Source: Escherichia phage PhiR63_2
Sequence record: PV340574.1
DNA: 48,138 nt
Reading direction: 5' to 3' (one strand)
Shown here: piece after piece, positions 8,948 through 9,934 of the stretch
How positions within the stretch are numbered: the first letter of the stretch is position 1
Layout: every line of letters starts with the position of its first letter
Notes under the pieces: model-generated
Database searches by the model: none
Told to the model about the DNA's origin: nothing
The model's input: only the letters and a program-made list of their open reading frames with translations
Program-made: the position numbers and the translations under genes

Positions 8948-9607
8948 TCACCCAAACGTCTCTTCAGGCCATTGGCTGGCGATAACTTTCCCCACAACGG
9001 AACAACTCTCATTGCATGGGATCATTGGGTATTGTGGGTTTAGTGGCTGTAGAAACACCTGACCGCTATCCCTGATCAGTTTCTTGAAGGTAAATTCATC
9101 ACCACCAAGTCTGGCTATGCAGAAATCGCCGGGCTCAACAGCTTGCTCAGGGTCAACCAGAATTAACATCCCGTCAGGAAAGCTGGGTTTGGAACCTGTT
9201 GGTGCGGTCATTGAGTTACCTTCAACCTCAAGCCAGAATGCAGAGTCACTGGCTTTTTTGGTTGTGCTTACCAATCTCTCCGCATCGCCTTTGGTAAAGG
9301 TTCTGAGTTCTGGAGAGAACATCCCAGCCTGAACATGAGAAAAAACAGGGTACTCATATTGTTTTTTAACTGGGGCCGATGAGTATTCGCCAACAGGTGA
9401 AAATGTCCCGTCGTGGTTGAATGATATGTTATCAATACCAAGGTATTTAAACACCACACCAATATCACTAAGAGATGGATGACGAGATCCGCGCAACCAG
9501 TGTCCAATCCCACCCTGCGTCATACCTAGCTCTTCGGCTAACTTCTCTTGAGTTATGCCGAGCTCTTTCATTCTGGATCTAGCCAGTTCATACCATTTCA
9601 TTTTCAT
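8948..9607 (-). CDS. cI: CI repressor: heterologous N-terminal HTH domain fused to a lambda-type C-terminal S24 autocleavage domain
   Basis: C-terminal ~130 aa ([44 protein letters not shown]...QWPEETFG) match lambda cI; N-terminal part ([23 protein letters not shown]) is a different HTH. Start uncertain: Met codons at 9649, 9643, 9607, 9601. Confidence 0.8.
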
Positions 9608-9718
9608 GTCCTTATTATTACGCTCTGTACTGGAACCATCCATGCACAATGTGTATTTTTACTTGTATTCGCAAAGTACATATTGTATTTTTTTATTCGT
9701 GTTTACTATGGAGGGCAT
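9608..9718. promoter_or_regulatory. Divergent pRM/pR promoter and OR operator region
   Basis: 111-bp AT-rich intergenic region between divergent cI and cro; repeated TTGTAT and GTACATAT motifs shared with the pL region; individual operators not resolved. Confidence 0.5.
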
Positions 9719-9934
9719 ATGAGCAACCTACGAAAATATCGAGAGTCACTGAATATCTCTCAAACAACACTTGCTAAGGCAGTTGGATGCACACAGGGAG
9801 CTATCGGACATTGGGAATCTGGTCGTCGCTTCCCAGACCTTAAAACATGCCGTGCTCTTGTTGCGTGCCTAAACAAGTTAGGCGCAAAAGTCAGTCTTGA
9901 TGACGTGTTCCCGCCGGAACACAAAGCCGCTTAA
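9719..9934 (+). CDS. cro: Cro-like HTH repressor (71 aa)
   Basis: HTH motif (ISQTTLAKAVGCTQGAIGHWESG); GGAGGG Shine-Dalgarno at 9710-9715 before the ATG at 9719; not lambda Cro sequence. Confidence 0.8.
   Translation: MSNLRKYRESLNISQTTLAKAVGCTQGAIGHWESGRRFPDLKTCRALVACLNKLGAKVSLDDVFPPEHKAA

Follow-up and report, generated by a model that had tools for sequence, protein, structure and literature searches.

Positions 8948-9934 of the 48,138-nucleotide (nt) stretch of DNA from Escherichia phage PhiR63_2 (sequence record PV340574.1; "the window" below means this whole stretch) hold the repressor gene cI, the divergent gene cro and, between them, the operator region OR. The preliminary description of the locus, made from the letters alone, had correctly read this span as cI plus cro and had called the repressor a mosaic relative to that of phage lambda, with a lambda-type C-terminal domain behind a foreign DNA-binding domain. 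Operator positions were mapped from the annotation of a Shiga-toxin (Stx) 1 converting phage, AP005153, which gives three 17-bp putative operators each at OR and at the leftward operator region, OL; the sites follow the consensus A(A/G)TAC-N5-GTA(C/T)T (ARTAC-N5-GTAYT), referred to below as the pattern. Promoter positions are predictions, read by eye with lambda and the AP005153 annotation as guides. The features that the argument needs, with helix-turn-helix abbreviated as HTH and amino acids as aa, are as follows.

8948-9649, minus strand: cI as an open reading frame of 233 aa, with HTH_3 and Peptidase_S24 domains (Pfam).
8948-9607, minus strand: cI in the reading with the best support, which starts at ATG 9607 (219 aa) or ATG 9601 (217 aa), with the stop codon at 8948-8950.
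9359-9607, minus strand: N-terminal HTH DNA-binding domain of VT2-Sakai type (HTH_3), residues 1-83.
8947-9358, minus strand: lambda-like island coding for the distal linker, the Ala-Gly cleavage site and the S24 catalytic/oligomerisation domain, residues 84-219 (lambda 102-237).
9323-9328, minus strand: codons of Ala94-Gly95, the predicted self-cleavage site (lambda Ala111-Gly112), from alignment identity to lambda.
9272-9274, minus strand: codon TTG of Leu112 (TGG of Trp129 in lambda), from the alignment with lambda.
9212-9214, minus strand: codon of Ser132, the catalytic nucleophile (lambda Ser149), from the same alignment.
9083-9085, minus strand: codon of Lys175, the general base (lambda Lys192), likewise.
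9608-9649, minus strand: open upstream extension (TTG 9649, ATG 9643), included in cI by public annotations (231 aa) and overlapping the operators at 9616-9632 and 9642-9658.
9674-9690, unstranded: OR1-equivalent AAGTACATATTGTATTT, identical to the AP005153 operator and overlapping the predicted PR -10 element.
9642-9658, unstranded: OR2-equivalent ATGCACAATGTGTATTT, identical to the AP005153 operator and abutting the predicted PRM -35 element.
9616-9632, unstranded: OR3-equivalent TATTACGCTCTGTACTG, identical to the AP005153 operator, one base off the pattern and overlapping the predicted -10 element of PRM.
7356-7430, unstranded: OL region with three operators, from the AP005153 mapping.
7356-7372, unstranded: OL1, a perfect palindrome, identical to AP005153 and an exact pattern match.
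7381-7397 and 7414-7430, unstranded: the other OL operators, 1-2 bases off the AP005153 sites.
9658-9686, plus strand: predicted PR (-35 TTTACT 9658-9663, 17-nt spacer, -10 TATTGT 9681-9686), read by eye and overlapping OR1.
9614-9642, minus strand: predicted PRM (-35 TGGATG 9642-9637, 17-nt spacer, -10 AATAAT 9619-9614), read by eye.
9719-9934, plus strand: cro, 71 aa, of the all-helical HTH_3 type (Pfam HTH_3, E 4e-12), unrelated to lambda Cro.

Both domains of the repressor are recognised by Pfam, the N-terminal HTH_3 domain at E 2e-10, above the gathering score, and the C-terminal Peptidase_S24 domain (PF00717) at E 1.3e-28. By BLASTP, residues 98-233 of the 233-aa open frame are identical to lambda cI 102-237 at 135 of 136 positions, the sole mismatch being Leu for lambda Trp129. 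On the N-terminal side of this block the alignment to lambda cI is weak and confined to the helix-turn-helix stretch, and the two N-terminal domains are ~18% identical. The match of the C-terminus to lambda cI, and with it the mosaic nature of the repressor relative to lambda, is thus borne out by proper alignment. Among homologues, sampled as the 120 best cluster representatives, the Ala and Gly of the cleavage site and the catalytic Ser are kept in all 120 and the Lys in 119, and Trp occupies lambda position 129 in 114. The Leu codon TTG is found at all seven sampled loci of the VT2-Sakai immunity type, and in complete E. coli genomes the Leu allele occupies 585 places, as against 608 for the Trp allele. 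Solved lambda structures span the equivalent of residues 84-219: the intact repressor (3BDN), the C-terminal dimer (1F39), the octamer (1KCA), two cleavage-site fragments (2HNF and 2HO0) and a 136-residue chain (8GMU). Because the Ala-Gly bond, the Ser, the Lys and the whole lambda self-cleavage and oligomerisation unit are retained, and the lambda fragment known for this activity is matched at 135 of 136 residues, lambda-like RecA-dependent induction, as had been proposed, is a reasonable expectation from the sequence.

In DNA, the lambda-like part of cI is a short island. Comparison with lambda 34500-40500 by blastn aligns window 8947-9358 with lambda 37226-37637 over 412 bp at 93.4% identity, with 27 mismatches and no gaps, and the 60 nt on each side of this block are 28-32% identical to lambda, which is the level of random sequence. 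Both ends are sharp: the block starts in the linker and stops with the cI stop codon, and in a three-way alignment the fall from 93% to random identity at 9358/9359 takes a few bases. The suspected recombination joint inside cI can therefore be placed at 9358/9359, in the inter-domain linker, about 10 codons ahead of the Ala-Gly cleavage site. The lambda-like segment is not the edge of a lambda arm, since homology ends again at the cI stop codon and unrelated genes hold the position of rexAB. Three lambda-homologous blocks appear in this part of the window: 7477-7598, the cI block, and a third from 10310 onward, 97% identical to lambda, which covers the end of cII and then O and P (97-98% identity for O and P, 97.9% for the O gene).

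How widespread is this arrangement? Window positions 7400-10500 are 100% identical to Escherichia phages ev207, ev017 and PhiR57_1, the last of which matches 97% of the window's first 25 kb at 99.5% identity, and the window overall is a lambda-like phage. The segment 9359-9934, with the N-terminal domain, OR and cro, shows 98.3% DNA identity to the Stx2 phage VT2-Sakai (NC_000902) and 98.4-98.6% to AP005153, Stx2 II, Nil2, 2851, 1717, YYZ-2008 and numerous Stx2a phages of O157:H7; in total it occurs in 63 phage records. By the sequence of its cI N-terminal domain, OR operators and cro, the phage falls into the VT2-Sakai immunity group. Of 5426 complete E. coli genomes, 776 (~14%) carry the immunity module, with 100% identity in the type strain ATCC 11775, and 1211 contain lambda-type C-terminal DNA, at 1435 places and in up to three copies per genome. 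The repressor is an already known and very common allele, an instance of well-known modular exchange. Its lambda-like C-terminus joined to a different N-terminus was described by Fattah et al. (2000), as cited in PMC10742460, and the CI of Eru2/Eru3-type Stx phages, with VT2-Sakai as the Eru3 representative in Table 1 of that paper, has been called 'clade I', 61% identical overall to lambda CI (PMC8951638). A literature search on ev017, ev207 and PhiR57 gave irrelevant papers only. In the VT2-Sakai record (NC_000902.1, 2590-3285; locus L005) cI is split into a 510-nt 'cI' coding sequence (CDS) and a separate 'c1 repressor protein fragment', which points to a frameshift, or else to a sequencing error in the record.

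The control region departs from lambda as the N-terminal domain does. Exact matches to the operator pattern occur only twice in the 48-kb window, at OL1 and OR1, next to PL and PR. The TAC...GTA half-sites are kept, with variable central bases, in two relatives whose N-terminal domains are 77-82% identical, and no lambda-type operator or half-site (TATCACCGC-type) lies in 7340-7440 or 9610-9700. Neighbouring operators at OR have centres 32 and 26 bp apart and those at OL 25 and 33 bp apart, as against 23-24 bp in lambda. Six nt separate the predicted PRM -10 element from the A of ATG 9607, the geometry of PRM, OR3 and the cI ATG is that of lambda (TAGATT, 6 nt, then ATG), and the predicted PRM -35 element has the position annotated in AP005153. 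By analogy with lambda, PRM transcription is predicted to start at or near the A of ATG 9607 and to give a leaderless mRNA. The Cro protein yields no BLASTP alignment to lambda Cro at E <= 100. It is a paralogue of the cI N-terminal domain (35% identity, E 9e-13), and the two recognition helices, TQGGIGHW in cI and TQGAIGHW in Cro, are nearly identical, which fits cI and Cro reading the same sites. The statement that the HTH domain, cro and the operators are unlike those of lambda is thereby confirmed on all three counts: a weak HTH alignment, no Cro alignment and no lambda half-sites. A palindrome, CCGCTTAATAAGCGG, lies across the cro stop codon at 9927-9941 and is called on the minus strand by the terminator scan.

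Homologues show that the C-terminal lineage has changed partners repeatedly. Among the 120 representatives, the C-terminal domains that share at least 79% identity with the window's are joined to five N-terminal clusters (clustering threshold, 60% identity): the window type, two relatives with ~50% identity to it, an unrelated type of 212-215 aa and the lambda type. Different N-terminal classes also carry C-terminal domains of at least 98.5% identity, in no fewer than five separate pairs (window/lambda; P0057/P0061; P0012/P0083,P0084; P0005/P0049; P0002/P0065). The argument for reassortment is built on this list of pairs, the neighbour-joining tree of C-terminal domains having been drawn without bootstrap. 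DNA homology to cI genes with other N-terminal domains starts at 9356-9360 in a Salmonella and a Kluyvera locus and at 9288 in one E. coli locus, and in all three it ends at the last codon. Because this homology starts there, the linker just before (Y/F)xYP(V/L)FSHVQAG is a recurrent exchange point. To speak of a foreign domain on a lambda protein is accordingly a lambda-centred view, given that this C-terminal lineage has been combined with five N-terminal clusters or more. Two loci with a uniform DNA identity of ~75% (L009 and L010) might suggest co-divergence of both domains, but this reading fails, as their C-terminal domains also group with lambda-type N-terminal proteins. The evolution of lambdoid phages has long been seen as modular, and exchange in the linker fits that view.

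How did the mosaic arise? The preliminary description had likened it to natural or engineered imm hybrids, and an engineered or very recent lambda hybrid, whether a laboratory construct or a fresh cross with lambda, would be in keeping with a C-terminal protein identical to lambda's at 135 of 136 residues and with O and P genes 97-98% identical to lambda further downstream. The likeness does not hold. Of the 27 nt differences from lambda among the 412 nt of the block, 26 are synonymous and one is non-synonymous (dS 0.37, dN 0.003, dN/dS ~0.008), and because of this pattern the block, judged by its substitutions, is an old natural allele under very strong purifying selection and no product of a fresh lambda cross. 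Its left edge is a stop codon with non-lambda cargo beyond, and the identical allele is carried by wild phages, by the type strain ATCC 11775 and by the 776 complete E. coli genomes. Synonymous divergence and natural distribution together refute the engineered or very recent hybrid, which has practically no chance of being correct. Could a single ancestral cI instead have diverged fast in its N-terminal half and slowly in its C-terminal half, with no recombination at all? Both N-terminal domains are HTH_3 folds, recognisably similar from helix 2 to helix 3, and the purifying selection on the C-terminal domain is strong enough to suit such a history. However, uneven rates sit badly with a DNA identity that falls to random within a few bases at 9358/9359. 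Furthermore, the same N-terminal family is also found on C-terminal domains only 57-62% identical (e.g. P0028, P0031), and near-identical C-terminal domains stand on three unrelated N-terminal classes in the separate pairs listed above. Since the patterns of the two domains are incongruent, domain exchange is required, and a history free of recombination is very improbable.

Two further alternatives concern the protein itself, namely where it begins and what it excludes. Four in-frame starts are present, as had been noted, one TTG (9649) and three ATGs (9643, 9607 and 9601), and the choice among them need not be left as ambiguous as it was. A repressor of 231 aa (from ATG 9643) or 233 aa (from TTG 9649) would agree with the frame, which is open back to 9649 in this phage, with the GenBank, RefSeq and PGAP records, all of which use ATG 9643, and with some close homologue clusters that are also called at 231-232 aa. 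Yet each of these two starts falls in the OR2-like operator or right next to it, with the PRM given in AP005153 further downstream; in that record, the annotated PRM is inside the annotated cI CDS. Neither TTG 9649 nor ATG 9643 is preceded by a Shine-Dalgarno sequence, and AAGGA (9613-9609) stands 7 nt before ATG 9601. Many homologues are called at 217 or 219 aa, starting MKW.. or MKMKW... In L009 and L010, relatives with 77-82% identical N-terminal domains, a 1-nt deletion brings an in-frame TGA to two codons upstream of the equivalent of Met15 while the operators, with their half-sites, remain; the 14-residue extension is also more variable than the domain that follows it. Because of this TGA and because the upstream starts lie in the operator, cI most likely starts at Met15 (9607) or Met17 (9601), at 219 or 217 aa, and not at ATG 9643; the 231/233-aa form is distinctly improbable. 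The segment 9608-9649 is most likely non-coding regulatory DNA with OR2, OR3 and PRM, and the public 231-aa annotation is probably 12-14 codons too long, running through the operators. As to specificity, the preliminary description had credited the prophage with heteroimmunity. This is likely with respect to lambda, given operators that differ from lambda's, but it is not safe as stated, and full heteroimmunity is not certain. The N-terminal domain, operators and Cro are not of lambda type, and the C-terminal domain is. Cross-immunity could come from what similarity is left between the recognition helices, or from mixed oligomers held together by the common C-terminal domain, and Fattah et al. 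did report cross-immunity with lambda, according to the second-hand account in PMC10742460. In gel shifts, every VT2-Sa operator is bound by lambda CI, with an apparent Kd of 3.7-6.4 uM (PMC10742460), and the HTH alignment shows Gln33 and Gln44 of lambda to be conserved here. Those affinities are, however, 10-30 times weaker than that of lambda CI on its own OR1/OL1 (0.2-0.35 uM; PMC10742460), and OR and OL are devoid of lambda-type sites. A phage not truly heteroimmune to lambda is thus an unlikely outcome.

We are highly confident that 8948-9934 forms the cI-OR-cro core of a temperate phage that is natural, lambda-like and of VT2-Sakai-type immunity, with a two-module mosaic repressor. The sequences show directly how the parts are related, where the blocks end, how common the module is, that the catalytic residues are conserved, that operator-like repeats are present and that relatives have the stop codon described above; from these we infer DNA binding to the proposed sites, cooperativity, PRM activation, leaderless initiation and RecA dependence. 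In the proposed mechanism, the HTH domain (residues 1-83) would recognise the 17-bp operators, three at OR and three at OL, and so set DNA specificity, and Cro, with its near-identical recognition helix, would read the same six sites. Residues 84-219 would contribute the lambda-type distal linker, the Ala-Gly site and the S24 Ser/Lys domain. Because lambda structures span these residues and the cleavage site and Ser/Lys dyad are retained, dimers are expected to form via the C-terminal domain, higher-order assembly should be lambda-like, and inactivation would proceed by RecA-stimulated self-cleavage between Ala94 and Gly95. By analogy with lambda, repressor dimers on OR1/OR2 and OL1/OL2 would shut off PR and PL, and a weak PRM would be activated from OR2; the acidic helix-2 residues of lambda, Glu34 and Asp38, have Glu and Glu as their equivalents here. 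Translation would begin at Met15 (9607), leaderless from PRM, and/or at Met17 (9601), via AAGGA on PRE transcripts. On the evolutionary side, the linker is a recurrent recombination point among enterobacterial lambdoid prophages, where one conserved C-terminal lineage has been combined with several unrelated or diverged DNA-binding domains, each travelling with its own operators and cro.

Several points weigh against parts of this reading. At 2 mismatches the operator pattern has 64 matches in the window against 42 expected, a modest enrichment, and the operator assignment leans on 'putative' sites in another record together with the pattern and its conservation. Because the operator spacings depart from the 23-24 bp of lambda, pairwise cooperativity of the lambda style is not guaranteed and its details may differ. 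Neither PR nor PRM was called by the consensus promoter scan; for PRM this is expected of a weak, activated promoter. The exchange of Trp129 for Leu could alter cleavage behaviour, and the 231-aa start in the public records, discussed above, also counts on this side.

What would so uniform a C-terminal domain mean for a host with several prophages? Since a near-invariant domain stands on different DNA-binding domains, in up to three copies per genome, the repressors of co-resident heteroimmune prophages may form mixed dimers or oligomers, which would couple their repression and their induction thresholds, and the lineage-specific change of Trp129 to Leu, located in the region of the cleavage site, might retune inducibility. 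The proposal is speculative and, on balance, rather unlikely. If true, mixed oligomers could explain the odd reports of cross-immunity with lambda, and a retuning by this Leu would bear on Shiga-toxin release from VT2-Sakai-type prophages. The shared C-terminal domain in any case invites tests of repressor cross-talk among co-resident prophages, including Stx phages.

Around the cI-OR-cro core lie the following features.

7602-8908, minus strand: two-gene cargo at the position of lambda rexA/rexB, with no lambda homology by blastn.
8351-8908, minus strand: gene for a 185-aa protein, a weak PADLOC match to PDC-M24 component A (E 5e-4).
7602-8354, minus strand: gene for a 250-aa DUF1828 protein, PADLOC PDC-M24 component B (E 5e-10).
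7577-7598, minus strand: terminator hairpin of the cI operon, equivalent to lambda t_imm, from the terminator scan and inside the island 7477-7598.
7477-7598: second small lambda-like island, 90% identical to lambda 35708-35826, which in lambda lies between OL and rexB.
10076-10372, plus strand: cII (Pfam Phage_CII), with the right joint of the immunity segment inside it at ~10310.

The two cargo genes overlap, and PDC-M24 is a candidate defence system in PADLOC; the genes at 7602-8908 are probably prophage defence cargo co-transcribed with cI. Cargo differs among phages of the same immunity, with breakpoints that are identical at 7598/7599 and 8946-8950 (L001, L005, L006, L007). Elsewhere the slot contains orf22 (VT2-Sakai and the Stx1 phage), an NYN-domain gene (2B8), the gene for a 283-aa protein (2G7b) or rexAB (lambda). 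The segment from the cI stop codon to the terminator is thus a cleanly bounded slot for different candidate defence genes, and the conserved 3' half of cI and the terminator block may provide the homology arms by which cargo is exchanged. Further left, the N gene (window 6893-7165) is annotated with 123 nt in ev017 (RefSeq) and 273 nt in PhiR57_1 (L003, L004), the sequences being identical. On the PL transcript, the N start is closely preceded by a 16-nt inverted repeat (7191-7238; 88% complementary, with a loop of 16 nt), which may be an RNA processing or regulatory hairpin of the N leader. On the right, cII is also mosaic, non-lambda over its first ~78 codons and lambda-like over the last ~21.

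The closest relatives of this system are VT2-Sakai (Sp5), AP005153, Stx2 II, Nil2, 2851, 1717 and YYZ-2008, together with the non-Stx phages ev207, ev017, PhiR57_1, 2G7b and 2B8. With the VT2-Sakai group it shares the N-terminal domain, OR and cro (98.3-100% in DNA), the C-terminal domain including Leu at lambda position 129, OR1-3 and OL1 identical to the AP005153 annotation, and a cII of the same type. It differs from AP005153 by 1-2 bases in OL2 and OL3, from VT2-Sakai in having lambda O/P as replication genes, and from the group in its downstream cargo, which is DUF6978-like plus DUF1828 here, orf22 in VT2-Sakai, the NYN-domain gene in 2B8 and the 283-aa protein in 2G7b. Phage lambda has the same cI C-terminal block, including the Ser/Lys dyad, the site of cleavage and every surface used in oligomerisation, and the same layout of divergent cI and cro, tripartite 17-bp operators at OR and OL, PRM overlapping OR3, an ATG at the predicted start point and a terminator after the cI operon. 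Unlike lambda, the phage has an N-terminal domain of only ~18% identity, TAC-N5-GTA operators in place of the TATCACCGC type, a Cro of unrelated fold type, operators 25-33 bp apart, Leu for Trp129 and no rexAB. The classical lambda imm434 and imm21 hybrids are likewise lambda-like in replication and other functions but differ in immunity specificity. They replace cI as a whole, the imm21 segment running from within N to within cII and the imm434 segment from left of cI to the end of cro, whereas here one joint lies in the cI linker and the other in cII.

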